A stretch of DNA of 13,998 nucleotides from contig DASSXV010000032.1 of NCBI GenBank assembly GCA_035703635.1, forward strand, positions 1 through 13,998, given 5' to 3'. The notes below the pieces were generated by a model that saw only the letters and a list, made by a program, of their open reading frames with translations, was not told where the DNA came from and made no database searches. The position numbers and the translations under genes are program-made. Each line of letters opens with the position of its first letter. Positions within the stretch are counted from its first letter, which is position 1. Below are positions 1-13,541 of this stretch, piece by piece. This DNA comes from Trueperaceae bacterium (GTDB taxonomy: Bacteria; Deinococcota; Deinococci; Deinococcales; Trueperaceae).

Positions 1-350
1 AGTGAGGCGAGGACTTGCGCTACGCGCAGCACGTCCTCCGCGCCTTGGACTTTCGGCACGCGGACCGCGTGGAGGCCCGGCCGCACGACCGCTTCCAGGT
101 CGTCACGCCAAGCGCCGTCCTGCGCCCCGATTCTCACGACACACGCGACGTCTGAGGTGACGAAATCGGGGAGGGCCGCACGAATGACCTCTCGTGCTAC
201 GGCCTTGCGTTCGGGCGCTACGGCGTCCTCAAGGTCCAGCACCACGGCGTCGGCGCCTGAGATCAGCGCCTTGCTGATCTTGCGAGCGTCGTCCCCTGGG
301 ACGAACAAGTAGCTTCGGCGAACGCCAAGGCTTGACGCGGTGAGGGTCAC
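1..350 (-). CDS. CitE-like CoA-ester lyase (HpcH/HpaI aldolase/citrate lyase beta family), 5' part; runs off the left edge
   Basis: Manual translation from GTG at 350: MTLTASSLGVRRSYLFVPGDDARKISKALISGADAVVLDLEDAVAPERKAVAR...VVRI...VRVPKV. RSxLFVPG, DxVxLDLEDAV and PKV are CitE/malyl-CoA lyase hallmarks. The start overlaps the CoA-transferase stop (GTGA, 347-350). Not in the ORF track because it has no stop in the window. Confidence 0.92.
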   Translation of the reverse strand, partial: MTLTASSLGVRRSYLFVPGDDARKISKALISGADAVVLDLEDAVAPERKAVAREVIRAALPDFVTSDVACVVRIGAQDGAWRDDLEAVVRPGLHAVRVPKVQGAEDVLRVAQVLAS

Positions 351-1561
351 ACCACCCCATCCCGCCTGAGCTCCTCGAGCTCCTCGCTCTCCACGCCGAC
401 GCTGCCGAGTATCTCGGCCGTGTCGGCCCCAAGCGGGCGTCCAGCGAAGCGGATGGCGCCGGGCGTGTCGGACAACCTGAAGAGGACGTTCTGCATCTTC
501 ACCGTGCCGAGCTCTGGATCCGGTACCTCAGCTATGCTCCCCAATGCGCGGTACTGCGGGTCGCTCATGACGTCGGACACGTCGTAGATGGGTATGGCGG
601 CGGCGCCTGCCGCCTCGAATGCCGCGATCACCTCGGCGGAGTCACGCGCCGCGATCCACGACCCAACGATCTCGTCCAGGAGGTCGGCGTGTTCGGCGCG
701 TTCGTGACCAGAACCGAACCACGGCTCCTGCGTGACGTCCGGCCGACCAACTAGCGTCATCACCCGCTCAGCTATCGTTTGAGCGCTGGTAGACACCGCG
801 ATCCAGCGGCCGTCCTTGCTGCGGTAAGTGTTGCGTGGTGAGTTGTTGACCGAGCGGTTGCCCGTTCTCCCCTGGATGACGCCAAGTTGGTCGTACACCG
901 TCGGTTGGGGTCCGAGAACGCTAAGGATGGGCTCGATTATCGCGAGGTCTATCATCTGACCTTCGCCGCCTCGAGCGTCGCGGTTGTAAAGCGCCATCAT
1001 CACCGCGATGGCGCCCGACAGCGCCGTTATGCCGTCGGCAAGGCCGAAGGGCGGGAGCGTGGGCGGACCCCCGGCTTGGCCCGTGATATGCGCGAAGCCG
1101 CTCATGGCCTCGGCGATCGTCCCGAATCCGGGGCGGTTGGAGTAGGGCCCGAACTGCCCGAAGCCAGTTACGCGCGCGAGCACCAGCCGCGGGTTGAGGT
1201 CGTGCAGGTCGGACCAACCCAGGCCCCACTTCTCGAGCGTTCCCGGGCGAAAGTTCTCTATGACGACGTCAGCCGTCGCCGCTAGTCGTTTGAAGATCCG
1301 CTGGCCGCGCTCGTCGCCGAGGTAGAGCGTCATGGTGCGCTTGTTGCGGCCGAGCAGCTTCCACCACAGGGCTACGCCGTCTTTCTGCGGACCGTGACCG
1401 CGGGCCGGGTCGCCGCGTGGGTGTTCGACCTTGATGACGTCGGCGCCGAAGTCGCCGAGGACGGTCGCTAGGAACGGTCCGGCGAACAGGGTCGAGACGT
1501 CCAGCACCCGGATTCCCTCGAGCACCTTCTTACCTTCGCTACCGGCTACGCTACTGTCCAT
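347..1561 (-). CDS. Family III (CaiB/BaiF/Frc) CoA-transferase
   Basis: LEGIRVLD..AGP..LGDFGADVIKVEHP.GD, RNKR, ADVVIENFRPG, NPRLV..R.TGFGQ.GP, and the candidate catalytic Asp in GLADGITAL. AAGGAG lies 13 nt upstream of the ATG. Confidence 0.95.
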   Translation of the reverse strand: MDSSVAGSEGKKVLEGIRVLDVSTLFAGPFLATVLGDFGADVIKVEHPRGDPARGHGPQKDGVALWWKLLGRNKRTMTLYLGDERGQRIFKRLAATADVVIENFRPGTLEKWGLGWSDLHDLNPRLVLARVTGFGQFGPYSNRPGFGTIAEAMSGFAHITGQAGGPPTLPPFGLADGITALSGAIAVMMALYNRDARGGEGQMIDLAIIEPILSVLGPQPTVYDQLGVIQGRTGNRSVNNSPRNTYRSKDGRWIAVSTSAQTIAERVMTLVGRPDVTQEPWFGSGHERAEHADLLDEIVGSWIAARDSAEVIAAFEAAGAAAIPIYDVSDVMSDPQYRALGSIAEVPDPELGTVKMQNVLFRLSDTPGAIRFAGRPLGADTAEILGSVGVESEELEELRRDGVV

Positions 1562-1604
1562 CGCCGTGGCACAACTCCTTTCAAGGTGGCGCGACCGCGC
1601 CTAA

Positions 1605-3071
1605 CTAATGACCGAGGTAAACGCGCGCGACGGCTTCGTCTTGCCGCATGTCCTCGGCCGCGCCTTGCATCGCCACCACGCCGTTCTCGAGCACGTATGC
1701 CCGGTGCGAGATGGCGAGGGCCAGCACGGCGTTCTGCTCGACCAGCAACACGCTCAACCCCTCCGCGTTCAGCCGCAGCAGGGCCTCGGCCACCTCTCGA
1801 GCTAGTAGGGGTGAGAGGCCGAGGGTCGGCTCGTCGAGCAGGAGGAGCTTCGGACTGCTCATCAGCGCTCTGCCGATCGCGAGCATCTGCTGCTCGCCAC
1901 CCGAGAGGCTCCCCGCCAGTTGGCTCGCGCGCTCCCGCAGGCGAGGGAAGAGGTGGTAGACGTGCTCCAAGGCTCCCTCGGTTGCGCCGCCGCTGGCACT
2001 CGCGCCCAAGTCGAGGTTCTCGAGCACCGTCATGCGAGGGAAGATCTCCCGTCCTTCCGGGCAGTGAGCCAGCCCTCCGCGCACCCTAGCCACTGGCCCG
2101 ACGGCGGCGAGGTCGCGGCCGAAGAGCCGGATGGCGCCCGTGGCGAGGGGCACCAGACCGGATATGGCGCGCAGCGTGCTCGTCTTGCCAGCCCCGTTGG
2201 AGCCAACAAGCGCGACGATCTCGCCGCGCCCGACGCGGAGGTTCAAGCGGTCGAGGGCGCGCACCTGACCGTACTTCACGCTGACGTCCTCTAGTTCGAG
2301 GACCGCTTCATCCGCGTTCAGGGCCGGGCTTGGCGCGGCGACCTCGTCGCCGGCACCAAGGTACGCACGCACCACTTCCGACTGCTTGGTTACTAGATTG
2401 GGGTAACCCTCAGCGAGCTTCACCCCGTAATCCATGACCACGAGCCGGTCACACCCACGCGCCATCGTCTGCATGTGGTGGTCGATGACCATGACGGTGA
2501 CGCCCCGGTCGCGGAGGCGGTGGATGAGTTCCATCGTCTCGTTCGCCTCCGTATCGTTCATGCCTGCGAAAGGCTCGTCCAGCATCAGGAGGAGCGGCTT
2601 CGCCGCTAACGCCAGCGCGATCTCTAGTACGCGCTGCTCGCCGTACGCGAGACCGCCAGCTAGGTCTTCCTGCCTGTGAAGCAGCCCAACCTCGGTGAGT
2701 ACGGCCTTGGCGTGCTCATCTAGGGCAGCCTCCCCTGCGCCAACTAGGTGACTTGCCACCAACACGTTCTGGCGCACACTCAGGTCGGCGAACACCCTGG
2801 TGTGTTGAAAGGTGCGGACCATCCCACGCCGCGCAAGGCGGTGAGGGACGAAACCGGTGACCTTCTGACCTAGGAACTCCACGCTGCCGCTAGTGGGCTT
2901 CAGATAGCCAGTCACGACGTTGAAGGTCGTGGTCTTACCGGCACCGTTCGGACCGACTAGTCCGAGGACCTCACCCTCTTTGACCTCGAACGACAGGCCG
3001 CTGACCGCGGCGAAGCCCCCGAACGTGCGCGTAAGGTTCTCGACGCGCAAGATGGTGCGGGCGGTGCTCAC
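1605..3071 (-). CDS. Branched-chain-amino-acid-type ABC transporter ATP-binding protein, LivG-LivF tandem fusion
   Basis: Two complete NBDs: GPNGAGKTT/LAYGEQR/LLMLDEP/IDHH (LivG-like) and GSNGAGKTS/LSGGEQQM/LLLLDEP/VEQN (LivF-like). The GTG start overlaps the LivM-like stop (3068-3071). Confidence 0.93.
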   Translation of the reverse strand: MSTARTILRVENLTRTFGGFAAVSGLSFEVKEGEVLGLVGPNGAGKTTTFNVVTGYLKPTSGSVEFLGQKVTGFVPHRLARRGMVRTFQHTRVFADLSVRQNVLVASHLVGAGEAALDEHAKAVLTEVGLLHRQEDLAGGLAYGEQRVLEIALALAAKPLLLMLDEPFAGMNDTEANETMELIHRLRDRGVTVMVIDHHMQTMARGCDRLVVMDYGVKLAEGYPNLVTKQSEVVRAYLGAGDEVAAPSPALNADEAVLELEDVSVKYGQVRALDRLNLRVGRGEIVALVGSNGAGKTSTLRAISGLVPLATGAIRLFGRDLAAVGPVARVRGGLAHCPEGREIFPRMTVLENLDLGASASGGATEGALEHVYHLFPRLRERASQLAGSLSGGEQQMLAIGRALMSSPKLLLLDEPTLGLSPLLAREVAEALLRLNAEGLSVLLVEQNAVLALAISHRAYVLENGVVAMQGAAEDMRQDEAVARVYLGH

Positions 3072-4078
3072 CGCGCCACCTTGGCGCGCGCCCGGCCTAG
3101 CAGTCGCTGCGCGCCGCCGACCAGCCCAGTGGGCAGCGCGATGATCACGGCAATCAGGATCACGCCGTAAACGACTTGTGAGAGGGCGGGCGCCATGCCT
3201 TTGAGCCCAGACGCTAGGACCGTGAGGAAGACGGGTCCGACAATGGGCCCGAGGGCCGTGCCTGCTCCGCCCAGCAAGTTCATGACGAACAGGTCGAAAG
3301 AGTGCACGAACGTGAAGGAGTCGGGGCTAATGAACGCCGTGTAGTGGGCGTACAAGGACCCGGCCAAACCCGCGAAGGCCGCCGCTACCGTGAAGGCAGC
3401 AACCTTCACGCGGTACGTGGGGATGCCGACGCTCTCTGCGAGGTTCTCGTCACCCTTCACGGCCGTGAGGGCGCGCCCGAACCTCGAGCGCGTGATGGCC
3501 GCCCTGAGTAGCAACGTGACTGCGACGAACGCGAGGACGAAGTAGTAGTAACCGACCTTGTTGATGATGGTCCTGAAGGTATGGCTAAAGCCGAACAGCT
3601 CGAGCGTGACGAACGGCACCCCGGTCAGCCCCATGGGTCCACGGGTGAGGTCGACCATGTTGGTCATCAGGATGGTGATGATGATGCCGACTATGAACGT
3701 CACAACCGAGAAGTAGTGACCCTTGAGGCGCAGGGCGGGTATGCCAACGACCAACCCGGCAAGCGCGCCCGCGACTACGGCAGCTGGCAGAGCGACCGCG
3801 ATCGGTTGCCCCGCCTTCATCAGTAGCGCCGAGGCGTACGCTCCCACGCCCATGAACGCAGCGTGCCCTAAGGAGATGAGGCCCGCGCTACCGATGAGCA
3901 GGTCGAGGCTAGCTACCAAGATGACGTTGATGCCGAGCAACACGAGCAGGTTGCGGGCGACGAGTCCTGTGAACAAGTGTGGAGCTAGCAAGGCGAGCAC
4001 GCCAACTAGCAACCAGAGGGCGGCCTGCCACGCCCTTACACGGCTCCGCGCTCGCCCGGTCGCTGGCGGACTACTCAC
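3068..4078 (-). CDS. LivM-type ABC transporter permease (about 336 aa)
   Basis: G.ISLGHAAFMGVGAY, LRLKGHYF, T.GPMG, SRFGRAL.AVK.DE..AESVGI, FISPDSF and GG.GT..GPIVG motifs. Start reassigned to GTG 4078, which overlaps the LivH-like TGA; the ORF-track extension to 4483 overlaps the upstream permease and reads as nonsense. Confidence 0.92.
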   Translation of the reverse strand: MSSPPATGRARSRVRAWQAALWLLVGVLALLAPHLFTGLVARNLLVLLGINVILVASLDLLIGSAGLISLGHAAFMGVGAYASALLMKAGQPIAVALPAAVVAGALAGLVVGIPALRLKGHYFSVVTFIVGIIITILMTNMVDLTRGPMGLTGVPFVTLELFGFSHTFRTIINKVGYYYFVLAFVAVTLLLRAAITRSRFGRALTAVKGDENLAESVGIPTYRVKVAAFTVAAAFAGLAGSLYAHYTAFISPDSFTFVHSFDLFVMNLLGGAGTALGPIVGPVFLTVLASGLKGMAPALSQVVYGVILIAVIIALPTGLVGGAQRLLGRARAKVAR

Positions 4079-4947
4079 AACTTGGCGTCCTGCACGCCGA
4101 AGAGTCCGCGGGGCCGCACAAGTAGAACCAAGACCATGAGCACGAACGCCGTTAGTTCGGCGTATTGCGTGTTGATGATGAGGGCCGTGAAGTTCTCGGC
4201 CAGCCCGACGATGAGCGCGCCGACGATGGCTCCAGGAACGCTGCCCATACCACCGAAGATGACGATGGCGAACGCCTTTATGATGACGATGGCTGCGATG
4301 CTCGGGTCGAAGGCGTTCACGCCGGAAGCCAGCGTGCCAGCCGCGCCCGCCAAAGCGCCAGCGAGCAGGAAGGCGGTTAGTTCTACTCGGAACGGCGCAA
4401 GGCCGATGATGAGGGCGCCGCGCCTGTTCTGGGACACTGCCCGCAGGGCCTTTCCGACGGGCGTTACTTTGAGGAAGAGCCACGAAAGCAGGACGAGGAC
4501 CACGACGATGCCAGCGATCAATGCTTGGTAACCGGTCCAGCTCGCCCCGAAGAGGATGAGCCGCACGTTGGCCAGCGGGGCTCTCACGAGCCTGAAGTCC
4601 GCCCCGAAGACGAGTAGGGCTAGGTTCTGCAATATCAGCAGGAGGCCGAGGGCGGCTACGAAGGTCGTTGTGCCACTGAACTTGCGCAGCGGCCGATAGA
4701 CAGCAAGATAGTTCGTTCCAGCGATGAGCCCGCCCACCACCATCGCGAGCGGCAGCGCAACGAAGAAGTTGAGCCCGAACGTGGAAGTAGCGAAGAAGGC
4801 TACGTAGGCGCCCGCCATGTAGATCGCGCCCTGTGAGAAGTCGGCGATGTCGAGGACGCCCAAGACGAGGGTCAAGCCCAGCGCCACCAGAGCGTAAAGG
4901 CTGCTGGAGTGGAGCGCGTTGAGGAGTTGTTGTAGTACTAGCTCCAT
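4075..4947 (-). CDS. LivH-type ABC transporter permease (about 290 aa)
   Basis: MELVLQQLLNAL..YALVALGLTLV.G, T..GKALRAVSQN, KAFAIVIFGGMGSVPGAIVG and VLLVRPRGLFG. Start reassigned to ATG 4947; the ORF-track extension overlaps the SnoaL-like gene. Confidence 0.92.
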   Translation of the reverse strand: MELVLQQLLNALHSSSLYALVALGLTLVLGVLDIADFSQGAIYMAGAYVAFFATSTFGLNFFVALPLAMVVGGLIAGTNYLAVYRPLRKFSGTTTFVAALGLLLILQNLALLVFGADFRLVRAPLANVRLILFGASWTGYQALIAGIVVVLVLLSWLFLKVTPVGKALRAVSQNRRGALIIGLAPFRVELTAFLLAGALAGAAGTLASGVNAFDPSIAAIVIIKAFAIVIFGGMGSVPGAIVGALIVGLAENFTALIINTQYAELTAFVLMVLVLLVRPRGLFGVQDAKL

Positions 4948-4963
4948 GGCCTGACGCTGCGCC

Positions 4964-5407
4964 TCACACCGTCTTGAGCAGGACGCCGCTCTCGGCCAAG
5001 TCGTTCCAGACGTCTTGCCGGGCCAGGAGGCGACCGTCAACTTCGAAGCGGTCGACGAAGCGCACGCCTTCGAAGTCAACGCCGTGCACGTTCGTGCCGT
5101 AGAGGGTGCCGCGCACCCATACCACTTCGGCGCCGCCAGACGAGAGACTCTCGACGGCTTCGATGCGCTTCGCCACCCATTGGTAGCGTTGGCGGCTGCC
5201 ACTGACGAGGTCTTCAAGCGCAGTGAGCCGCTTGGGTCCGGGGAACACCATGGTGAAGCCCGGCGCTAACGCGGCCTTGGCGGCCGTCAGGTCGCGGGCC
5301 TCCATGGCTGCTAGGAAGGCCACTGCTACGGCTTGCGCCGTCCCCGCGTCGGGGTGGGCGCTCAGCCAGTCGGTCGGGCTCGGTGGGCTGCCAAGTGCGC
5401 TGTTCAT
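4964..5407 (-). CDS. SnoaL-like / NTF2-fold protein
   Basis: 147 aa with V.AFLAAME.RDL.AA...LAP.F.M.FPG, followed by beta-strand motifs VWVRGTLYG...G..FEGVRFVDRFEV.G.L..QDVWND typical of the NTF2/SnoaL fold. GAAGGGA lies upstream; the gene sits in the operon between the SBP and permease genes. Confidence 0.8.
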   Translation of the reverse strand: MNSALGSPPSPTDWLSAHPDAGTAQAVAVAFLAAMEARDLTAAKAALAPGFTMVFPGPKRLTALEDLVSGSRQRYQWVAKRIEAVESLSSGGAEVVWVRGTLYGTNVHGVDFEGVRFVDRFEVDGRLLARQDVWNDLAESGVLLKTV

Positions 5408-5438
5408 TGCGTGCGTCCCTTCGCGTCGCAGGTCCTCA

Positions 5439-5488
5439 CTAGAAGTGGCGCCGCCTGGGACTCCGTCCGGCAGGCGGCGCGACTCTAG
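5439..5488 (-). repeat. Intercistronic inverted repeat / RNA stem-loop just downstream of the SBP gene
   Basis: Perfect 10-bp arms GCGCCGCCTG (5448-5457) and CAGGCGGCGC (5471-5480), an inner GGAC/GTCC mini-stem, and an outer imperfect CTAG..AGT/ACT..CTAG extension. No U-tract. Confidence 0.75.
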
Positions 5489-5501
5489 CTTCAGGCGCCG
5501 G

Positions 5502-6752
5502 TTAGTTACAGAGGTCCGCTTCGGTCAGAAGGACAGGTTCGACGAAGGCGTAGTCACGGTCGGCGACGAGTAGCAGTCCGTCCGAGTCGAAGGTGGCGAC
5601 GCCCGCCCCTAGCACGGCTTGGCCGCACTGGAGGAAGTGGTAGTTGCCGTAAGACAGCTCGAAGTCTTGGCCCGAGAGCACTTGTTGCATGGTGGCGGCC
5701 GGATCGGTCGTGCCTGCGCGCTCCATGGCCTGTTTGATGAGCATGACGGTGCCCCAACCCAGGCCGTGGTTGCGGCCAGGGGTGATGCCTAGGATGCGCT
5801 CGCCGGCATCGAGCAGGGCCTGAACGCCGGGCTCGATCGCGGTGCGGTCGAAGGTGCGGGCGGCTGTGCCGGTGTCGTCGTACCAGGGGAAGTAGACGCC
5901 TTCGACGTTCTGTTGGCCGACGGCGCTTACGACGCTAACGTCGGACACGAGATCGGATCCGTAGAGCGTCTGCGTGATACCGAGCTCGTCGCTCTGGAGC
6001 AGGATGCCGATCATCTCTTGGGCCAAGCCGATGCCAACGATAGCGTCGGCTCCGGAGGCCTTGGCCTTGGTCAGCAAGGTGCGGAAGTCGGTGGCGGCGT
6101 ACGCGAAGTACTCAGGCTCGGCCACTAGGCTGCCGCCAAGCGCCTCGACGGTCGCCTTGAAGTGCTTGATCATGCTGCGACCGAAGTCGGTGTTCTGGGC
6201 CATGGCGAAGAACGTCTTATCACCGTTCTCGAGCACGGCGTACTTGGCGAGCGGCACCATCTCGTTGCGTGCCTGCACGCCGAGGCGCGCGGAGAGGACC
6301 GCGTTCGCGTCCGCGCGGGCAGTGGTCGTGAGTTCGTCGGCGTAGGCGTAGGCGATCTGCGGGATGCCTAACGCCGCGAGTACTGGCATCTCAGCGAGCG
6401 CCGCTGAGCTGCAGAACGAACCGCCTACGAAGGTAGCGCCTGCAACGGCCAACCTGCTGGCAGCGTCGATCGCTCCTTGTGGGCTACATAGATCGTCCTC
6501 GAAGACGAGTTTGAGCGTGACCGTCTGATCGCCGACTTTGAAGCCGCCAGCGTCGTTTATCACCTGGGCTGCGAGTTCGGCCCCGACTTTGCTCTCGGTA
6601 CCTTCTTTGGCGGCACCTCCAGTAAGTGGGAGGGAGAAGCCGATGGTGACGACCGTTTGGGCCGCGCCCACGCTGACGAGCGCCAGCAAGAGCGCCGCCA
6701 GGATGCCGCGAAACGCCCATCCTTGTCGTCTGGATGCGTTGCCGAATGACAC
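5502..6752 (-). CDS. ABC transporter substrate-binding protein, LivJ/LivK (periplasmic binding protein type 1) family
   Basis: Sec-type signal peptide (RR..FR, hydrophobic core, VGAA|QT), then IG.S.PLTG..A..G, EDD.C.P, G.FCSS, N.DFGR and DF.TLLTK.KASGAD. GAGGAGG (6762-6768) lies 9 nt before the GTG. Confidence 0.92.
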   Translation of the reverse strand: MSFGNASRRQGWAFRGILAALLLALVSVGAAQTVVTIGFSLPLTGGAAKEGTESKVGAELAAQVINDAGGFKVGDQTVTLKLVFEDDLCSPQGAIDAASRLAVAGATFVGGSFCSSAALAEMPVLAALGIPQIAYAYADELTTTARADANAVLSARLGVQARNEMVPLAKYAVLENGDKTFFAMAQNTDFGRSMIKHFKATVEALGGSLVAEPEYFAYAATDFRTLLTKAKASGADAIVGIGLAQEMIGILLQSDELGITQTLYGSDLVSDVSVVSAVGQQNVEGVYFPWYDDTGTAARTFDRTAIEPGVQALLDAGERILGITPGRNHGLGWGTVMLIKQAMERAGTTDPAATMQQVLSGQDFELSYGNYHFLQCGQAVLGAGVATFDSDGLLLVADRDYAFVEPVLLTEADLCN

Positions 6753-6829
6753 GATAATCCGCCTCCTCGTTGGAAGGTGCCGACCGGCCGTTTGGACGGC
6801 GGCTGGCCTAGTTGGTCAATTTCACAGTG

Positions 6830-6858
6830 AGTGTAGCGCCGGTTTGACAGGCTGTCAA
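6830..6858 (-). promoter_or_regulatory. sigma70-type promoter for the transporter/CoA-transferase operon
   Basis: On the minus strand: TTGACA (6858-6853), 17-bp spacer, TACACT (6835-6830). Predicted TSS near 6823. Confidence 0.75.
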
Positions 6859-6872
6859 CAGGACAACATAAT
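6844..6872 (+). promoter_or_regulatory. sigma70-type promoter for gntR-amidohydrolase, probably giving a leaderless mRNA
   Basis: TTGACA (6844-6849), 17-bp spacer, CATAAT (6867-6872), 6 nt, ATG (6879). No SD upstream of the ATG. Confidence 0.75.
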
Positions 6873-6876
6873 GTCC
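6853..6876. promoter_or_regulatory. Candidate GntR operator(s)
   Basis: Inverted repeats TGTC-N5-GACA (6853-6865) and GGACA-N6-TGTCC (6861-6876) overlap the promoter elements next to the gntR gene. Confidence 0.4.
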
Positions 6877-6878
6877 GT

Positions 6879-7694
6879 ATGAATTTTCCTTCGGGGCCTG
6901 AGGGCGTCGCCCGACTACTCAGCGGAGCGTTGCCGGACGTCAACCGTGATAGCCCCTTGCCTTACTATCACCAACTCAAGAACATCATCCTCGACCAGAT
7001 CCTGCTGTTGAAGGATGACCAGCAGCTGGCCCTCCTCCCGACCGAGCGTGAGTTGCAGGAGCGCTACCAAGTCTCGCGCTCCGTCGTCAGGCAAGCAGTC
7101 GACGAACTGGTGAAAGAGGGTTACGTCGTGCGGCAGCAAGGTCGCGGTACCTTCGCCGTTCCGCACCGCGTGCGCCACAATCCTCAACCAGAGACAGCGC
7201 GCTCGCTAGGGCTATCCGGCTACCTGAAGGTGCGTGGGATCGATTCCAACACGACGTTGCTCTCTCGCGGGCTCCAGGCAGCCGAGCCAAGCGTCGCGCT
7301 TGCTCTCGGGCTTGCGCCGGGGGCCGAGATCCTGCGCTTCGAGCGGGTGCGCTTAGCGGCCGACGTGCCGATCGGGCTGCACATCGTGAGCCTGCCAGCG
7401 GCGCTGATCGCGGCCGCAGAAGGCGGCGTCGACGACGAATGGCTCCTGTACGGCGAGTCCTCGATGGACTATCTGACCGAGCGCCTCGGGCTTACCATCG
7501 GCCACAGCACGCGCACCATCGAGGCCACCGCCCTAGACGAGCACCAAGCTGAGTTCCTGCGCGGCCAGCCGGGCCAACCTGCGCTCCGCGTTAGGCGCAC
7601 CGTCAAGGACCGCTATGGCCGCCCGATCGAGTACTTCGACGCCGTCTACCGCGGCGACATGTTCGAGTACTCACTGGAGTTCGACCACACCTGA
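6879..7694 (+). CDS. GntR-family transcriptional regulator, HutC/UTRA subfamily
   Basis: wHTH motif SPLPYYHQLK..LPTEREL.ERYQVSRSVVRQAVDELVKEGYV.RQQGRGTF, and a C-terminal UTRA pattern RFERVR..P, TIEA, PALRVRR...GRPIEY..AVYRGD.FEY. Confidence 0.95.
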   Translation: MNFPSGPEGVARLLSGALPDVNRDSPLPYYHQLKNIILDQILLLKDDQQLALLPTERELQERYQVSRSVVRQAVDELVKEGYVVRQQGRGTFAVPHRVRHNPQPETARSLGLSGYLKVRGIDSNTTLLSRGLQAAEPSVALALGLAPGAEILRFERVRLAADVPIGLHIVSLPAALIAAAEGGVDDEWLLYGESSMDYLTERLGLTIGHSTRTIEATALDEHQAEFLRGQPGQPALRVRRTVKDRYGRPIEYFDAVYRGDMFEYSLEFDHT

Positions 7695-7726
7695 GGCACT
7701 AACTGCGCCTCGCCCAAGGAGGAAGT

Positions 7727-9199
7727 ATGGCCGCGAACAACGAGTGCGATCTGCTCATCAAGAACGTACGCCTAGCCAGACCCCACGGGTCCGACACGCC
7801 TGTGACGGACGTGGCGATCAAAGATGGAAAGTTCCACCGCATCGCGCCAGGCATAGCGGTCGATGGCGCGCGCGAGGTGGTCGATGGCGGCGGCCTACTG
7901 GCGTTCCCTGGCTTGGTCGACGGGCATATGCACGTTGGCATCTACTCCCCGCTCGAGCAAGACGCGGTAACGGAGAGCAAGGCCGCCGCCATGGGCGGTG
8001 TAACGAGCGCCTTGACCTACTTTCGCACGGGAGACTACTACCTCAACCGTGGCGGACCGTACGCGGACTTCTACCCTGAAGTCCTACGCCGCTCCGCAGG
8101 CAGGTACTGGGTGGATTACGGCTATCACCTGGCGCCGATCAACCGCTCGCATATCGACGAAATGCCCATGCTGCTAGACGAACACGGCGTGTCATCGTTC
8201 AAGATCTTCATGTTCTACGGCGGGCACGGCCTGCACGGCCGCTCGAGTTCACAGCGCAACTTCCTGCACCTTGAGGAGGGCGAGACTTACGACTTCGCCC
8301 ACTTCGAGTTCATCATGCGCAAGCTCTCGGCCATGATCGCCGACGACCCCAAGCGGGGGGAGCACATCTCCCTAAGCCTCCACTGCGAGATCGCAGACAT
8401 TCTCAACGCCTACACGGCGATCGTCGAGCGCGACGGCAAGCTCAAGGGCCTCCACGCTTACAACGCCGCGCGGCCGCCGCACTCGGAGGGGTTGGCGGTG
8501 TTCATAGCCTCCTACCTCGCGTACGAGACCTCGTTGGCGAACATCAACCTCCTGCACCTCAGTGGCCGCAAGGCGCTCGAGGCTGCCCTGATGATGGAGG
8601 GCCTCTTCCCGCACATTTCGTTCAAGAAGGAAGTCACCATCGGTCACCTCCTCCTTGACATCGATAGTCCCGCCGGGCCCCTCGCGAAGGTCAACCCGCC
8701 GATTCGTCCACGCGCCGACGTGGAGTACTTGTGGGAGCAGGTGCTTGCCGGCAACGTCGACTGGATCGTGAGTGACCACGCGTGCTGCAAGGCCGAGATC
8801 AAGGTCTCAGAGGAGCATCCGGACGACATCTGGCTGGCCAAGTCGGGCTTCGGCGGCACCGAATACCTCCTTTCTGGGCTCTTCAGCGAGGGCTCGAAGA
8901 GAGGCCTGTCACCAAACCGGGTAGCCGAACTCACGAGCTTCAACCCCGCCAAGCGCTACGGGTTAGGAGCCAAAGGTGATGTGGCTGAGGGCCTCGATGC
9001 AGACCTGGTACTCCTCGACCCGAACAAGAGCTTTGTCGTAAGGGCCGCGGACGCCGAGTCGGGGCAGGGCTACACGCCGTTCGAGGGGCAGGAGCTGACC
9101 GGCAAGGTCATGAAGACTTACCTGCGCGGGAACCTCGTATATGACGACGGAAACATCGTCGGACCGGCGAGAGGGCAGTACCTGCGGCGGCCGAGTTAG
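7727..9199 (+). CDS. Cyclic amidohydrolase (allantoinase/dihydroorotase/hydantoinase family), binuclear metal site
   Basis: PGLVDGHMH (HxH), ESKAAAMGGVT, FKIFM (Lys normally carboxylated), LHCE, LLHLS, KVNPPIR, SDHAC, NPAKRYGL..KG....G.DADLV, TPFEG.EL.G. SD AAGGAGG at 7716-7722. Confidence 0.92.
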   Translation: MAANNECDLLIKNVRLARPHGSDTPVTDVAIKDGKFHRIAPGIAVDGAREVVDGGGLLAFPGLVDGHMHVGIYSPLEQDAVTESKAAAMGGVTSALTYFRTGDYYLNRGGPYADFYPEVLRRSAGRYWVDYGYHLAPINRSHIDEMPMLLDEHGVSSFKIFMFYGGHGLHGRSSSQRNFLHLEEGETYDFAHFEFIMRKLSAMIADDPKRGEHISLSLHCEIADILNAYTAIVERDGKLKGLHAYNAARPPHSEGLAVFIASYLAYETSLANINLLHLSGRKALEAALMMEGLFPHISFKKEVTIGHLLLDIDSPAGPLAKVNPPIRPRADVEYLWEQVLAGNVDWIVSDHACCKAEIKVSEEHPDDIWLAKSGFGGTEYLLSGLFSEGSKRGLSPNRVAELTSFNPAKRYGLGAKGDVAEGLDADLVLLDPNKSFVVRAADAESGQGYTPFEGQELTGKVMKTYLRGNLVYDDGNIVGPARGQYLRRPS

Positions 9200-10500
9200 C
9201 GGAGTGAGCTGAGTTGTTCGCCACTGGCGCCCAGCGCTCCCTCACGCGCCAGCGCCCGCCCAGCCAACCACCCGGTCGTCCACGCGCTCTGGAAGTTGAA
9301 CCCACCCGTTATGCCGTCGATGTCGAGTACCTCGCCCGCGAAATGCAGTCCGGGCACGACCCGGCTCTCCATGGTGGCGAAGTCGACTTCCTTCAGCCGG
9401 ACGCCACCGCACGTCACGAACTCTTCCTTGAAGACGCCCTTGCCGGTTATTTCGTAGCGACCAGCGTGCACTTCGTGCGTGAGCGCCGCTACGAGCGACT
9501 TGGGTGCATCGCCCCAGCGTAGTTGCTCGTCTGCGCCCGCGGCCGCAGCTAGCGAGCGCCATAACCGCTGCGGCAGGTCGAGTGCGCCTGCTGCGAGGAC
9601 GGTGCGGCGGGCGTCGGCCTGCTTCGCGGCGATCAGCTCGCTGCGAACGGCTTCCTCGGTGAGGTCTGGGCGCCAGTTGACCGTCACGCCGAGTTGGTAG
9701 CCGTGGTCGTGGAGCGGCCGAGCGCCCCAAGCCGACGCCTTCAGAACGGCCGGACCGGAGAGGCCCCAGTGAGTTATGAGCAGCGGGCCGTCGTGGGACT
9801 CCTTTACTCCGTCCAGGCGCACGCGTCCATCCTGCACGGAAACGCCCGCTAGGCCGTGCAGGCGCGGGTCGTCGATCTTGAAGGTGAACAGGGACGGCAC
9901 CGGCGGCTCGACGGTGTGCCCCAAGTCCGCAGCCCAACGGTAGCCCGCCGGCGCACCGCCGGTGGCGAGCAGGACGCGGTCGGCGGCGACTGCGCTGCCG
10001 TCCTTCAACCGGAGGAGGAACCTGGCGGCGGCTCCTTCCGCAGGATGCCCGTCGCCTGTGGGTTCGTGCACCTCGACGCTGACCACGGCCGCTCCGGTGC
10101 GCACCTCGACCCCCGCATCTCTCGCGGCGCCAACGAGGCAGTCGATGATGGTGGCAGAGTCGTCGGTGGTTGGGAACATGCGGCCGTCGGCCTCGGTCTT
10201 GAGTTGCACGCCGCGCTGCGCGAACCACGCCACCGTCTCCCGCGGTCCGAAACGCGTGAGCGGGCCTAACAACGCGCGGCCGCCCCGAGGATAGTTCCGT
10301 ACGAGCAGCGCCGGGTCGGGCTGGTCGTGGGTGACGTTGCAGCGGCCGCCACCCGAGATGCGCACCTTCGACAGCACAACCTGGCTGGCCTCGAGGATGG
10401 TTACGCGCGCCGCCCGGTTAGCTTCCTGGCAAGTTATGGCCGCGAAGAAGCCGGCGGCGCCGCCACCTACGATCACTATGCGTTGGCCGGTGCTGCGCAT
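9196..10500 (-). CDS. HI0933/YhiN/BaiN-family NAD(P)/FAD-dependent oxidoreductase
   Basis: GGGAAG, K..ISGGGRCNVT, GRMFP, LATGG, LITHWGLSGPAVL, VTCGGV, GL.FAGEVLDIDG.TGGFNFQ.AW.TG. Confidence 0.95.
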   Translation of the reverse strand: MRSTGQRIVIVGGGAAGFFAAITCQEANRAARVTILEASQVVLSKVRISGGGRCNVTHDQPDPALLVRNYPRGGRALLGPLTRFGPRETVAWFAQRGVQLKTEADGRMFPTTDDSATIIDCLVGAARDAGVEVRTGAAVVSVEVHEPTGDGHPAEGAAARFLLRLKDGSAVAADRVLLATGGAPAGYRWAADLGHTVEPPVPSLFTFKIDDPRLHGLAGVSVQDGRVRLDGVKESHDGPLLITHWGLSGPAVLKASAWGARPLHDHGYQLGVTVNWRPDLTEEAVRSELIAAKQADARRTVLAAGALDLPQRLWRSLAAAAGADEQLRWGDAPKSLVAALTHEVHAGRYEITGKGVFKEEFVTCGGVRLKEVDFATMESRVVPGLHFAGEVLDIDGITGGFNFQSAWTTGWLAGRALAREGALGASGEQLSSLR

Positions 10501-10506
10501 CGGGGC

Positions 10507-10512
10507 ATGTTA
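10507..10512 (-). promoter_or_regulatory. -10 element of a probable leaderless transcript (HI0933-family gene)
   Basis: Minus strand reads GG-TAACAT-GCCCCG-ATG: TAnnnT exactly 6 nt before the start, no SD, no recognisable -35. Confidence 0.6.
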
Positions 10513-10543
10513 CCGGCAGAGGCGGGGTCCGCGTTACTTGGCG

Positions 10544-11455
10544 CTAGGCACGCAGCACTTGGCGGCTGCGGCGGTTGCTAAGGATTGTCGCGAGGTGCTC
10601 CTCTAGCGCCGCCAATTCCAGCCCAAACGCTTCGACCGCCGGTCGGGGATCCCCAGTGTTACCCGCGAGGAGCATGATCAGCTCGTCACGTGTAATCGGG
10701 GGGTTCGGGAGCAGTCTGAACAACGCAACGCCCACGCGCATGAGCGGCAGCGGAATGTTCACGAGCGGCCTGTTCAGCCCAAGGGTTTCGCGCACCAAGA
10801 CGAGCAACTCCCGGAGCGTGTACTCGCGAGGGCCGACCAAATCGAAACTGCCACCTACCGTGGTCGGGCGCTCGAGCGCGCGAACGAACGCCGTGGCAAC
10901 GTCATCGATCCACACGGGACTGAACGGGTATTCGCCGCTCCCTACCACCGGAATGACCGGCGGCTGGGTGACGAGATTGCGGAGCGTCCCTCCGAAGAAG
11001 GCATCGCCAACACCGAAGATCAGGCTCGGCCGCATGATGGTCCAAGCGGCAGCCGACGACCGCACTAGCTCCTCGGCCGCCGCCTTGCTGCGGTGGTAGC
11101 CGCTGCTGGAACCAACGCCTGCGCCGAGGGCGCTCATGTGTACCAGCCGCGGCACCCCAGCTCTAGCGGCCGCGGCGAGTACGTTGCGCGTGCCTTCGAC
11201 GTGGACCCGCTCGAACGTCGCGCCGCCGCGCTCCCGGATGATGCCGACAAGGTGAACGACGGCGTCCACGCCGCTCATGGCGGCCGCGAGACCCTCGCTA
11301 GTTACGACGTCGCCTTGCAGGCTGGCGACCGTCGCTGGCAACTCGGTCGACCGCTGCAGGCGGCCGAAGGTAGTGACTTGCATGCCAGCGTCCAACAGGT
11401 GCTTCACGACGTGGCCGCCAACGAAGCCGGTGGCGCCGGTGACGAGAACCCTCAT
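10544..11455 (-). CDS. NDUFA9-like atypical SDR / NAD-dependent epimerase-dehydratase family protein
   Basis: VLVTGATGFVG, DAVVHLVGIIRE, F.RVHVEGTRNV, HMSALGA, YHRSKAAAE (YxxxK), TIMRPSLIFG.GD, P..IDDVA, PPITRDEL.ML. Confidence 0.92.
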   Translation of the reverse strand: MRVLVTGATGFVGGHVVKHLLDAGMQVTTFGRLQRSTELPATVASLQGDVVTSEGLAAAMSGVDAVVHLVGIIRERGGATFERVHVEGTRNVLAAAARAGVPRLVHMSALGAGVGSSSGYHRSKAAAEELVRSSAAAWTIMRPSLIFGVGDAFFGGTLRNLVTQPPVIPVVGSGEYPFSPVWIDDVATAFVRALERPTTVGGSFDLVGPREYTLRELLVLVRETLGLNRPLVNIPLPLMRVGVALFRLLPNPPITRDELIMLLAGNTGDPRPAVEAFGLELAALEEHLATILSNRRSRQVLRA

Positions 11456-11461
11456 GGGGTC

Positions 11462-11467
11462 AGTTTA
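11462..11467 (-). promoter_or_regulatory. -10 element of a probable leaderless transcript (NDUFA9-like gene)
   Basis: Minus strand reads TAAACT-GACCCC-ATG: TAnnnT exactly 6 nt before the start, no SD. Confidence 0.6.
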
Positions 11468-11469
11468 GG

Positions 11470-11498
11470 CCGTGGCCGGGCCGGAAGCCCGGTCACGG
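11470..11498. repeat. 12-bp inverted repeat between divergent genes
   Basis: CCGTGGCCGGGC (11470-11481), 5-nt loop CGGAA, GCCCGGTCACGG (11487-11498); 11 of 12 pairs Watson-Crick plus one G-T. Confidence 0.7.
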
Positions 11499-11515
11499 GC
11501 CGGACACCCGACCCG

Positions 11516-11524
11516 TGCCAGAAT
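11516..11524 (+). promoter_or_regulatory. Possible extended -10 (TGnCAGAAT) for the LLM gene
   Basis: TG-C-CAGAAT ends 8 nt before ATG 11533; no convincing SD. Confidence 0.35.
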
Positions 11525-11532
11525 CGACGGAT

Positions 11533-12558
11533 ATGACGAAGAGCATCGGCTTCCTCTCGTTCGGGCACTGGACACCGTCCCCGCACTCGCAAACGCGCAC
11601 AGCATCGGATGCCTTGCTGCAAGCCATCGACCTGGCCGTGGCCGCGGAGGAGTTGGGGGCTGACGGGGCGTACTTCCGCGTGCATCACTTCGCGCGGCAA
11701 CTTGGCTCGCCGTTCCCGCTGTTGGCCGCCATCGGAGCTAAGACCTCGCGCATCGAGATCGGCACTGCCGTCATAGACATGCGCTACGAGAACCCGATGT
11801 ACATGGCTGAGGACGCTGGCGCCGCCGACCTCATCGCGGGCGGGCGCCTGCAGCTTGGCATCAGCCGCGGGTCGCCTGAGCAGGTCGTCGATGGCTGGCG
11901 CTACTTCGGGTACGCGCCGGAGGAAGGCGAGGACGACGCCGACATGGCCCGGCGCCACGCGATCAAGTTCCTCGACGTGCTGCGTGGCGTGGGCTTCGCG
12001 CGGCCGAACCCCCGACCGATGTTCGCTAACCCACCTGGCCTGTTGCGCCTGGAGCCGTACTCGGCCGGCTTGCGTGAGCGGATCTGGTGGGGCGCCGGAT
12101 CGGACGCCACGGCCGCCTGGGCGGGCCGGCTAGGCATGAACCTGCAAAGCTCGACCCTCAAGTTCGACGAGACCGGCAAGCCGTTCCACATCCAGCAGGC
12201 CGAGCAGATCCGCGTGTTCCGTGAAGCCTGGCGCGAGGCTGGTCATCCTGGGGAGCCGCGCGTGTCCGTTAGCCGCAGCATCTTCGCGCTAGTGGACGAC
12301 CGCGACCGCGCCTACTTCGGCCGTGAACAGAACGACGCTGATCAGATAGGCTTCATCGACGAGAAGACGCGGGCCATCTTCGGCCGCAGTTACGCCGCCG
12401 AACCGGACGTGCTCGTCAAGCAGCTAGCAGAGGACGAGGCGATCGCGGAGGCCGACACGCTCCTCCTCACCGTTCCGAACCAGCTTGGGGTCGAGTACTG
12501 CGCGCACAGCATCGAAGCCGTACTCAAGTACGTGGCGCCCGGGCTCGGCTGGCGTTAA
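11533..12558 (+). CDS. LLM-class (luciferase-like) flavin-dependent oxidoreductase
   Basis: IGFLSFGHW, AEELGADGAYFRVHHF, P.PLLAAI...TSRIEIGTAV, ENP..MAEDA..ADLI.GGRLQLGISRG. ATG 11533 (MTKSIGFLSFG) is preferred to GTG 11515 because family members as I recall them begin directly at this first strand. Confidence 0.93.
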   Translation: MTKSIGFLSFGHWTPSPHSQTRTASDALLQAIDLAVAAEELGADGAYFRVHHFARQLGSPFPLLAAIGAKTSRIEIGTAVIDMRYENPMYMAEDAGAADLIAGGRLQLGISRGSPEQVVDGWRYFGYAPEEGEDDADMARRHAIKFLDVLRGVGFARPNPRPMFANPPGLLRLEPYSAGLRERIWWGAGSDATAAWAGRLGMNLQSSTLKFDETGKPFHIQQAEQIRVFREAWREAGHPGEPRVSVSRSIFALVDDRDRAYFGREQNDADQIGFIDEKTRAIFGRSYAAEPDVLVKQLAEDEAIAEADTLLLTVPNQLGVEYCAHSIEAVLKYVAPGLGWR

Positions 12559-12983
12559 CTGGCTGGGCTAAGCGCCCACGGCCACACAACGCACGAAGCC
12601 ACCTCAGGCAGCACGACCAGGTCGGCTTTGCCCTTGAACGCGAGGGTCGTCACCTCACAACCAGCCAGGTGTTGGCGGGCGACGGCCATGGTAGCGCCGC
12701 TCACGCTGACGTCATCGACGAGCAGCACGCGGCTGCCCGGAGCCGGGCCATCGAACGGCTCGAGCAGGGTGGGAGCCTCGCGCCGCGGCTTGTTGTCGGG
12801 GTCGCGGAAGTTCAGATGGATGATCTTCAAAGGCGCCCCCAGGTGGTAGGCGACTAGGCTGGCTGGCACCACGCCGCCGGTCGCGATGCCAACGACGACA
12901 TCGACCTCCGGCAGCCCCAATGCCCTCAGGCGCCGGGAGACGTCCTGAAAGTCGAGCTCGAGCTTGGGTGAGGCGACGGTCAC
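12555..12983 (-). CDS. Type I phosphoribosyltransferase (Gpt/6-oxopurine PRTase-like), compact 142 aa
   Basis: DVVVGIATGGVVPA.LVAY.L (PPi loop), VLLVDDVSVSGATM (PRPP-binding motif) and C-terminal VVWPW. The GTG start overlaps the upstream TGA (12980-12983). Confidence 0.88.
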   Translation of the reverse strand: MTVASPKLELDFQDVSRRLRALGLPEVDVVVGIATGGVVPASLVAYHLGAPLKIIHLNFRDPDNKPRREAPTLLEPFDGPAPGSRVLLVDDVSVSGATMAVARQHLAGCEVTTLAFKGKADLVVLPEVASCVVWPWALSPAS

Positions 12984-13510
12984 CTTGAGCTCGGCCGGCC
13001 CGCGAGCCTCACGACCAGCAGATTGACGACGACAAGCACCACGAGGCCAGGCAGCGCGTTGACGACGGAGGCCGACAAGTAACCGAGCGGTAGCGCCGGT
13101 ATGAGCGCGGTGACGCTAAGAACGCCAGCCGCAACGACTTTGGCGATCAGGTACGCGATTGGTGCGTTGATCACCGAGCGCCGCCAAACGCGCGTGAGGG
13201 CGAGCGCGGCGACGGTGAAGGCGCACAGTTCCACGGTGAGGAGCACGGCCATCTCGAGCGTTGGCTGACCGGTTAGTGAGCGGTTGAGGAGCGGCGTTGC
13301 CAACGATGCCACCAGCGCAGCGACTGGGTGGAACAGCAACACCGCGATGAACGGCGCGATGAACAGCGGTAACAACACTGCGCCCATGGGCGTGGCGCCA
13401 ACCGGGGGCAGCATGTGTACGAAGAACGGCAATGCCACCGCGAACAGCACCGTCAGCAGCGTGGCGGGGACGGCGAACTTGCGAGTGGCGAGGGCGGGGA
13501 GGGTTGTCAT
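12980..13510 (-). CDS. Integral membrane protein, probable ECF transporter S-component
   Basis: 176 aa with about 5-6 hydrophobic segments and the pattern AVALP..VH......G..LLP.F.....A............PLL...LTG.P..........EL, plus C-terminal ..LPG.VV, recalled from ECF S-components. SD AAAGGA lies upstream of the ATG. Confidence 0.65.
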   Translation of the reverse strand: MTTLPALATRKFAVPATLLTVLFAVALPFFVHMLPPVGATPMGAVLLPLFIAPFIAVLLFHPVAALVASLATPLLNRSLTGQPTLEMAVLLTVELCAFTVAALALTRVWRRSVINAPIAYLIAKVVAAGVLSVTALIPALPLGYLSASVVNALPGLVVLVVVNLLVVRLAGRPSSR

Positions 13511-13541
13511 GTAGATGGTCCTTTCGAGGGTGAGGACGCCT

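Follow-up and report, generated by a model that had tools for sequence, protein, structure and literature searches.

Which compound is taken up and dismantled by a gene cluster that unites a cyclic amidohydrolase, a dedicated ABC importer and CoA-dependent carbon-carbon cleavage enzymes under a single GntR-type regulator? The question is raised by contig DASSXV010000032.1 from a Trueperaceae bacterium (GenBank assembly GCA_035703635.1), analysed over its entire length of 13,998 nucleotides (hereafter the window, corresponding to the whole of contig C60 in a 2.9 Mb genome, 97.65% complete). An earlier note, made from the letters of the window, had described a self-contained, non-canonical unit under one regulator in its left part, and the profile comparisons bear this out, the equivalog cut-offs for allantoin, pyrimidine, hydantoin, ergothioneine, itaconate, citrate-lyase and methylcitrate enzymes all being unreached. 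We infer every reaction, the order of the steps, the identity of the substrate and the repression by GntR from the encoded protein families and their genomic contexts; on that footing, the island is a real, regulated and uncharacterised pathway, probably an accessory catabolic unit under GntR control whose imported substrate would be a cyclic amide, most likely a cyclic imide with a carboxyl or alkyl substituent.

Gene calls relied on the listing of open reading frames (ORFs) combined with Pfam and NCBIfam profile scans of the window proteins (Table 1), which place every gene named in the earlier note where the note had put it. The island comprises 11 genes, including (i) the PrpD-like, cyclase, CitE, CaiB, ATPase, two permease, SnoaL-like and binding-protein genes, and (ii) the divergent gntR and cyclic amidohydrolase (AH) genes. 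The suspicion that further genes lie beyond the left edge proved right: positions 2348-2488 of contig C84 (2,488 bp) match window positions 1-141 in an exact 141-nt overlap, the length of an assembly k-mer, and the genes on C84 have the same orientation and encode the 233 aa missing from CitE, a so-called cyclase metal amidohydrolase of family PF04199 (267 aa), and an MmgE/PrpD protein. C84 continues the window to the left, the boundary between both contigs falling within the CitE gene. In G008, a closed genome from the same genus, the 11 genes stand in the identical order, with a PrpD-like protein of 481 aa and a CitE of 299 aa, the G008 proteins being 55-87% identical to those of the window (46% for one permease), and the metagenome contigs L125-L127 repeat the order of the island. 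The tight coupling and the 126-bp control region previously described are equally confirmed, with 4-bp overlaps at 347/350, 3068/3071 and 4075/4078, gaps of 16-94 bp at the other junctions, and a 126-bp spacer between the starts of the binding-protein gene (6752) and gntR (6879).

The island exists in two versions within a single genus. Version A is characterised by a module encoding an HMG-CoA-lyase-like (HMGL-like) lyase, LeuC-like and LeuD-like hydratase subunits, and a second CoA-transferase, CaiB', whereas version B displays the CaiB-CitE-cyclase-PrpD module of the window. At a threshold of E <= 1e-100, AH is encoded in 9 of 41 genomes sampled from the window's own, its genus, family and order, comprising 7 of 17 same-genus genomes, one of another genus, and the window's own. 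An ortholog of the window CaiB is found in just one of the 17 same-genus genomes (G008, 85% identity; the next best matches reach 55% and 40%). Version A keeps the importer, the SnoaL-like and binding proteins, GntR, the operator and AH, and carries its module between gntR and AH; CaiB' is 27-31% identical to the window CaiB, both enzymes belonging to family III. This version is present in 12 Deinococcota loci, including L004-L010, L018 and L022, with all seven markers in each, together with G019, G022 and G027; G016, on a 1.5 kb contig, was left unclassified. The window genome contains no HMGL-, LeuC- or CaiB'-type orthologs, the best matches (35%, 32-39% and 30% identity) lying elsewhere in the genome, and no ortholog of the window CaiB is found in five version-A genomes, with best matches of 29-34%. 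The two versions are mutually exclusive in the genomes compared.

A neighbour-joining tree of AH (Biopython, 100 bootstraps) groups the window and G008 sequences in 74 of 100 bootstraps and nests them inside the version-A clade in 100 of 100, which argues that a non-homologous module replaced an older one. In the simplest history suggested by these relationships, an ancestor with version A would have given up HMGL-LeuCD-CaiB' and acquired CaiB-CitE-cyclase-PrpD downstream of the ATPase gene. The replacement proceeds role for role, comprising (i) a CoA-transferase, (ii) a 3-hydroxyacyl-CoA lyase, and (iii) a (de)hydratase of cis-unsaturated acids. Since it surrounds an unchanged importer-SnoaL-GntR-AH core, these predicted reactions appear to belong with the importer and AH, and the module swap provides strong genomic evidence for the reactions that would follow ring opening. 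The version-A lyase lies above the cut-off (246) of the HMG-CoA lyase subfamily NF004283, with scores of 271.5 (L105:15748-16743) and 323.5 (a Chloroflexota fusion protein described below); because this is a subfamily model, the match leaves the substrate unfixed.

AH aligns over its full length with the allantoinase from E. coli (PDB codes 3E74 and 8HFD) and preserves all six ligands, H67, H69, K159, H219, H277 and D350, thereby displaying the metal centre of the dihydroorotase/hydantoinase/allantoinase/imidase family. In the part of PMC9863593 available, this family is described by a binuclear metal centre comprising four His, one Asp and a carbamylated Lys, and the reference list of that paper names members hydrolysing cyclic imides, including maleimide. 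Compared to the E. coli enzyme, AH shows an insertion of ca. 25 residues after the carbamylated Lys and, compared to the cyclic amidohydrolase family in general, its gene partners are CoA-dependent C-C cleavage enzymes instead of carbamoylases. The scores remain below the cut-offs of (i) AllB (TIGR03178; 213.3 bits against 357.85), (ii) D-hydantoinase/dihydropyrimidinase (TIGR02033; 176.8 bits in two stretches against 393.25), and (iii) the hydantoin-5-propionate amidohydrolase ErtD (NF058539; 194.8 bits against 650), the best solved structure reaching ca. 145 bits. Homologs are abundant, with 6,691 of 8,000 scored candidates at E <= 1e-20; the 120 best are 67-90% identical, originate from at least six phyla and bear generic names such as 'allantoinase' or 'dihydroorotase family'. 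Of 515 candidate stretches in species-representative genomes, 500 contain the gene of a relative. The locus counts given below are based on 80 loci kept from these 500 and distributed over Deinococcota, Chloroflexota, Methylomirabilota/Rokubacteria, Betaproteobacteria, Acidobacteriota and Cyanobacteria, with homologs 62-85% identical. Altogether, AH is seen as a member of an uncharacterised, strongly conserved clade and as a candidate imidase.

The enzymes of version B preserve their catalytic signatures, comprising the six ligands of AH, the cyclase motif and the full CaiB profile, at a clear distance from the characterised models. CaiB belongs to family III (PF02515), with succinate--glutarate CoA-transferase as the best NCBIfam model (219.5 against a cut-off of 750). 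The C-terminal part of CitE, encoded on C84, matches PF03328 with 106.6 bits; citE is the nearest NCBIfam model and RipC the second. Against TIGR01588 (cut-off 443.4), the full-length G008 protein scores 208.8 and the two parts of the gene split between C60 and C84 score 80 and 162.8, and against RipC/Ccl the G008 protein scores 194 for a cut-off of 375. Pfam scans of the 11 island genes disclose no MaoC or enoyl-CoA hydratase domain. The cyclase matches PF04199 with 109.1 bits and contains the sequence H-V-G-T-H-I-D-A-F-S-H, an instance of HxGTHxDxxxH, which we take to be the metal-binding motif of the family; it qualifies as a member of the kynurenine formamidase/isatin hydrolase family and scores 54.7 against the arylformamidase model TIGR03035 (cut-off 223.05), the nearest solved structures being an uncharacterised protein, followed by isatin hydrolases and kynurenine formamidases. 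The PrpD-like protein is a member of the MmgE/PrpD family in Pfam (202.7 bits for the N-terminal domain), well below the 2-methylcitrate dehydratase PrpD models NF006943 (55.8 against 575) and NF042438 (52.4 against 950). Its nearest solved structures are cis-aconitate decarboxylase/IRG1 and IDS epimerase, and this proximity to enzymes of cis-unsaturated or substituted polycarboxylates argues for the cyclic-imide reading.

In the proposed pathway, (i) the Liv-type ABC system would import the compound; (ii) the binuclear-metal AH would open the ring to a half-amide; (iii) the PF04199 metal amidohydrolase would remove the remaining amide, a step that would be spontaneous in version A, where such a gene is missing; (iv) the MmgE/PrpD protein would hydrate the resulting cis-unsaturated di- or tricarboxylate; (v) the family III transferase would form the CoA thioester; and (vi) the CitE-like lyase would release an acyl-CoA and a 2-oxo acid by retro-Claisen cleavage. 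Ring opening, CoA activation and cleavage thus survive from the scheme of the earlier note, which had omitted the (de)hydratase step, attributed here to the PrpD-like protein and elsewhere to LeuCD-like proteins.

The hydratase of version A is a member of the archaeal-type isopropylmalate/homoaconitate family, with the LeuD-like subunit matching the 'LeuD/DmdB family' model TIGR02087. The recognition loop of the AH-linked LeuD-like proteins reads GK[Y/H]TKT in 36 of 39 matches, and its Lys aligns with the Arg of YLRT in homoaconitase (2PKP) and with the Val of YLVY in isopropylmalate/citramalate isomerase (3VBA). In homoaconitase, the loop Arg binds the distal carboxylate, and the cationic loop of the LeuD-like proteins hints at a substrate with an anionic side chain. 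That the loop region sets the substrate preference is reported in the accessible portion of PMC7308503. The partner enzymes as a whole fit a cis-unsaturated or hydroxy polycarboxylate, as would arise from a cyclic imide with an acidic or alkyl substituent.

The control region is consistent with a common regulation of both divergent units. Alignment of the spacer with five relatives, covering both versions and a second genus, discloses a block of ca. 45 nt directly 5' of gntR (6835-6878) that is conserved in 6 of 6 aligned sequences, across both versions and the second genus, the remaining spacer not being conserved. The block contains a perfect 7-1-7 palindrome, TTGACAG-G-CTGTCAA, with arms 100% complementary, a candidate GntR operator. 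A consensus promoter scan detected three sites in the scanned region, compared to 0.4 +/- 0.7 in shuffled sequences, and the -35 hexamer of each of the two divergent promoter-like sites corresponds to one half of the palindrome. The gntR-AH transcript is likely leaderless, because the -10 element ends 6 nt 5' of the gntR ATG and no Shine-Dalgarno sequence is found there; AH is preceded by AAGGAGG. Leaderless mRNAs are common in Deinococcus-Thermus. No terminator-like sites were detected in a scan of positions 5350-9400, positions 1-5349 being outside the scan. A single regulator dimer bound to the palindrome could block both promoters: the UTRA-GntR protein would bind the palindrome, which is the -35 of both divergent promoters, and repress importer and enzymes jointly until the substrate or the ring-opened product appears.

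Among the proteins of the conserved core, the ATPase is 64-74% and GntR 60-71% identical in relatives of both versions. The regulator is a member of the HutC/UTRA group, with an N-terminal GntR winged helix and a C-terminal UTRA effector domain, and reaches none of the NCBIfam cut-offs. A urea transporter (Urt) was considered for the importer and rejected, with scores of 36 against 492.75 for UrtA, 137 against 250.3 for UrtB, and 115.9 against 296.2 for UrtC; the fused ATPase lies above the UrtD and UrtE cut-offs (327.1 and 335.3) solely because a single protein contributes the summed score of two ATPase domains. Within the importer operon, the SnoaL-like gene separates the binding-protein gene from the permease genes, and it is kept at the equivalent position with 51-68% identity in 9 of 9 version-A loci. 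Its Atlas model (pTM 0.90) neighbours SnoaL_2/DUF4440 proteins, some with fused tautomerase domains.

Several observations weigh against reading the island as one pathway for a cyclic imide. The join between C84 and C60 is inferred from the 141-nt overlap and the synteny with G008, and the PrpD-like gene of this genome is truncated by the end of C84. The best named relatives of AH are allantoinases and hydantoinases rather than imidases. The SnoaL-like protein, which the earlier note had proposed to process the ring-opened compound, is left without an explained role in the pathway. Version A encodes no conserved second amidase; dialkylmaleamic acids hydrolyse spontaneously via neighbouring-carboxyl catalysis, which could explain how version A dispenses with it. 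A CN_hydrolase considered as the version-A half-amidase was rejected, adjoining the importer in L105 alone and neither in L102-L104 nor in other loci. The locus L013 contains both PrpD-like and LeuCD-like genes, and the two hydratase types are consequently not always alternatives.

The remaining objections concern the independence of the acquired cassette. A survey of its origin covered 80 metagenome loci, 30 of which contain a CaiB at least 60% identical; CitE adjoins CaiB in 24 of these 30, and follows it in all 14 CaiB loci with at least 3.5 kb downstream, the cyclase and the PrpD-like gene each appearing in 6 of these 14. An AH-like gene is present in 1 of the 80 metagenome loci and in none of the other 79. 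The cassette carries its own regulators or transporters, which implies that the module can work on its own substrate, and the CaiB-CitE pair also occurs in unrelated contexts. Relatives of the pair, 64-69% identical, stand in a different conserved setting in L150-L152 and L158-L163, comprising a large protein with an FGE-sulfatase domain, a long one with an esterase domain, ADP-ribosylglycohydrolases and a binding protein of the SBP_bac_1 type.

These data bear on an alternative that we hold unlikely, in which two unrelated units happen to be adjacent: the importer-SnoaL-GntR-AH unit and an independent mobile cassette degrading an itaconate-, aconitate- or amide-acid-like compound. Beyond the sulfatase- and esterase-associated pairs, cassettes standing alone with an FCD-GntR, an IclR or their own Liv-type transporter (L144, L154, L143, L147) speak for it, as do the restriction of the CaiB ortholog to G008 among the same-genus genomes and the DDE transposase directly after AH in that genome (L119:3001-4464; PF13701, 274.9 bits), a neighbour consistent with an island in a variable, mobile region. 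It is opposed by the module swap, in that the genomes gaining the cassette are exactly those losing HMGL-LeuCD-CaiB' between gntR and AH, and by the arrangement of the window, where the cassette has the orientation of the ATPase gene and starts 43 bp after it, and the scanned part of the region shows no terminator-like site. Two further loci link the families independently: L143 comprises an MFS protein, an AH paralog (43.8%), CaiB, CitE, cyclase, PrpD and IclR, and the Acidobacteriota locus L025 contains, just before AH, HMGL-like, aldehyde dehydrogenase, CaiB-like and PrpD-like proteins, the latter 54% identical to that of G008, an arrangement that is, by its gene content, a hybrid of versions A and B. 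Among the 80 AH loci, 46 encode CaiB', 38 a LeuD-like, 37 a LeuC-like and 35 an HMGL-like protein. The conserved linkage predicted by the earlier note thus extends across phyla for AH with a CoA-transferase, a C-C lyase and a hydratase, but not for the specific CaiB-CitE pair, whose co-occurrence with AH is limited, besides the window, to G008 and three near-identical metagenome contigs. As the same roles are fulfilled elsewhere by HMGL-like and LeuCD-like proteins and another CoA-transferase, the conserved element is the function and not the gene pair.

That AH is instead of the hydantoinase, allantoinase or dihydropyrimidinase type, with a ureide or oxidised nucleobase as its substrate and the N-carbamoyl product degraded via CoA esters, is quite unlikely. 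Its top NCBIfam and PDB matches are indeed allantoinase, ErtD and D-hydantoinase, and a nearby phosphoribosyltransferase gene (12555-12983) hints at nucleobase metabolism; nevertheless, these matches lie far below the curated cut-offs, and the genes to the right of position 9199 are not conserved with the island. Pfam scans and inspection of the neighbouring genes disclosed no carbamoylase conserved in either version, which argues against ureides, since these would yield N-carbamoyl products, and the same holds for a ureidoglycolate enzyme or a urease; the partner enzymes are of kinds that handle acids of the citrate, aconitate or alkylmalate type. The hydroxylated hydantoins and oxidised nucleobases put forward as examples in the earlier note are therefore disfavoured by the missing carbamoylase. 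Very unlikely is an oxindole/isatin-type lactam route, in which a 3-hydroxy-lactam-acetic acid would be CoA-activated and cleaved by CitE into acetyl-CoA and an alpha-keto-lactam, to be opened by the cyclase: it agrees with the isatin hydrolases and kynurenine formamidases as nearest named solved relatives of the cyclase and with the gene order CaiB, CitE, cyclase, but the island contains no indole-ring oxygenase or anthranilate genes, the available text of PMC12633357 credits iad side-chain removal to enzymes outside these families (acyl-CoA synthetase, thiolase, dehydrogenase), and AH, PrpD and the cationic-loop LeuCD-like proteins would be left with no role.

The cyclic-imide reading is likened to several known systems, yet the island remains below every substrate-specific equivalog cut-off tested. 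Itaconate degradation (Ict/Ich/Ccl; RipABC) shares a CoA-transferase and a CitE-family lyase acting on a C5-dicarboxylate-type acid; the island differs in the absence of a MaoC-type itaconyl-CoA hydratase and in the additional AH, cyclase-family and PrpD-family genes and dedicated importer. Nicotinate fermentation in Eubacterium barkeri involves an enamidase, a LeuCD-type dimethylmaleate hydratase and a 2,3-dimethylmalate lyase. Its dimethylmaleate branch follows the same logic as version A, with ring opening by an amidohydrolase-superfamily enzyme, LeuCD-type hydration and a C-C lyase, whereas cleavage in the island would be CoA-dependent, no B12 mutase or nicotinate dehydrogenase is encoded, and in version B a PrpD-family protein takes the place of LeuCD. 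Methylcitrate and citrate-lyase chemistry resembles version B in combining a PrpD-family (de)hydratase of a cis-unsaturated tricarboxylate with a CitE-family lyase of a 3-hydroxy-3-carboxy-acyl-CoA, although the PrpD-like and CitE proteins of this version lie below the equivalog cut-offs and the former is closer to IRG1 and IDS epimerase. In the cyclic-imide metabolism of Blastobacter sp. A17p-4, an imidase and a half-amidase lead to the dicarboxylate, and these two successive amide hydrolyses are the role proposed for AH and the cyclase-family hydrolase; to our knowledge, CoA-dependent steps, an importer and a regulator are not described for that system.

A more specific proposal for the substrate is drawn from Chloroflexota and Cyanobacteria. 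The Chloroflexota AH proteins are 70-76% identical and encoded in clusters of 12 or more genes. The families accompanying AH in the 80 loci include aldehyde dehydrogenase (40), acyl-CoA-dehydrogenase-like (34), Rieske/VanA_C oxygenase (31), alpha/beta hydrolase (29), and RCC-reductase-like (RCCR-like; PF06405, 58 bits; 15) proteins; several family-less proteins also recur. Searched against the PDB, the PF06405-matching protein finds significant matches in plant RCC reductases alone (E 2e-8). In the Chloroflexota loci L015, L035, L043 and L050-L054, an RCCR-like protein is encoded beside AH with a Rieske oxygenase, alpha/beta hydrolases and DUF3891, and in the cyanobacterial loci L073-L083, AH and an RCCR-like protein are accompanied by SnoaL_2, CN_hydrolase, DUF4437, DUF3598 and a HisRS-like protein. 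No BLASTP alignment is obtained between the SnoaL-like protein of the window and the cyanobacterial SnoaL_2 proteins beside AH, just the fold class recurring. A 324-aa Chloroflexota protein shows an Atlas likeness of 0.89 to the DUF3598/BFA1 type, a sub-threshold value to be taken as a lead only. Three Chloroflexota HMGL-like proteins (L011:5517-6902, L039:5374-6759 and L059:7280-8692) contain an N-terminal flavin reductase domain (PF01613), and a nearby acyl-CoA-dehydrogenase-like protein could be the partner oxygenase of this flavin reductase-HMGL fusion.

The accessible text of PMC7318184 documents that chlorophyll and heme are naturally oxidised to hematinic acid and alkyl maleimides, which are found in leaves and lake sediments. 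Bacterial RCCR-like sequences serve solely as an outgroup in the available part of PMC10151467. The frequency of RCCR-like and Rieske proteins at AH loci, the homoaconitase-like cationic LeuD loop, the cis geometry that would be inherent to a ring-opened maleimide, and the documented maleimides lead to the tentative and rather unlikely proposal that the island is the terminal CoA-dependent branch mineralising monopyrrolic imides (hematinic acid, methyl-ethyl-maleimide) from chlorophyll, heme or bilins. In such a pathway, AH would be an imidase yielding a 3-methyl-cis-homoaconitate-type acid, hydrated by the LeuCD-like or PrpD-like proteins, and its CoA ester would be cleaved to propionyl-CoA (or acetyl-CoA) and 2-oxoglutarate (or pyruvate). 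The upstream opening of the tetrapyrrole would fall to Chloroflexota and Cyanobacteria, with genes beside the same AH for a Rieske oxygenase, an RCCR-like protein, alpha/beta hydrolases, a two-component flavin monooxygenase and an aldehyde dehydrogenase, and Truepera-like heterotrophs would scavenge the soluble imide through the ABC importer; no upstream tetrapyrrole-opening genes are found in the Deinococcota islands. The literature consulted yielded no described bacterial catabolism of hematinic acid or maleimides and no description of this gene combination. If the substrate were such a tetrapyrrole-derived imide, the island would provide a first gene set to test for the mineralisation of these breakdown products.

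Table 1. Features of the island in the window (positions in nucleotides of the forward strand)
Feature	Position	Strand	Evidence
CitE-like acyl-CoA C-C lyase, N-terminal 116 aa	3-350	-	PF03328 85.2 bits; remainder L002:1786-2487 (C84)
Family III (CaiB/Frc-type) CoA-transferase	347-1561	-	PF02515 397 bits, profile 1-366 of 366
Fused two-domain ABC ATPase (LivG-like + LivF-like)	1605-3071	-	PF00005, 2 stretches, 208.7 bits
LivM-type permease, 336 aa, GTG at 4078 (refined start)	3068-4078	-	PF02653 (BPD_transp_2); relatives 335-340 aa
LivH-type permease, 290 aa, ATG at 4947 (refined start)	4075-4947	-	PF02653 (BPD_transp_2); relatives 290 aa
SnoaL_2/NTF2-like protein in importer operon	4964-5407	-	PF12680 25.5 bits, just below cut-off 27
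Peripla_BP_6 substrate-binding protein, HAAT family	5502-6752	-	PF13458 150.6 bits; signal-peptide-like N-terminus, GAGGAGG ribosome-binding site
Promoter-like site, importer operon: TTGACA, 17 nt, TACACT	6830-6858	-	10/12 consensus matches; -10 conserved in 6/6 aligned
Candidate GntR operator; -35 common to both promoters	6844-6858		Perfect palindrome in conserved block
Promoter-like site, gntR-AH: TTGACA, 17 nt, CATAAT	6844-6872	+	11/12 consensus matches
GntR regulator, HutC/UTRA type	6879-7694	+	PF00392 52.3 bits, PF07702 105.4 bits
Cyclic amidohydrolase (AH), 490 aa	7727-9199	+	Metal ligands align with E. coli allantoinase; candidate imidase

Besides the island, the window encodes at 9196-13998 an aminoacetone-oxidase-family/HI0933-like flavoprotein (TIGR00275, 400 bits, above the cut-off), an NAD-dependent epimerase/SDR protein, a luciferase-like oxidoreductase, three ORFs matching no family, and the small phosphoribosyltransferase mentioned above; these genes lie outside the island and are not syntenic in G008. 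A 154-aa ORF (7615-8079, + strand) running from the last part of gntR into AH shows no family match and is probably no gene. Among public sequencing runs, DNA runs of soil, wastewater, leachate and sludge from several studies contain 0.84-0.87 of the sampled words of the window, a hint on habitat only. Contigs of four sludge RNA-library runs (X15-X18) cover most of positions 1-9600, X15 showing depth in 30 of 30 bins, and the contig on the binding-protein gene is deeper (37.9, 21.4) than those on neighbouring genes (ca. 3-7); as these are assembled contigs, and such libraries can include DNA, they establish neither that the genes are transcribed nor how they are grouped into operons. Some contigs end near 6811, 6883-6884 and 6902, which would agree with the transcription starts predicted near 6879 (+) and at about 6823 (-) but proves nothing.

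The AH clade is abundant, tightly conserved across phyla and annotated in generic terms only. One genus harbours two non-homologous enzyme sets around a common core, a natural experiment, and the binding protein, GntR, AH, two hydratases and two lyases constitute a compact protein set for testing. It is this swap of modules within a genus that makes the island unusually informative.

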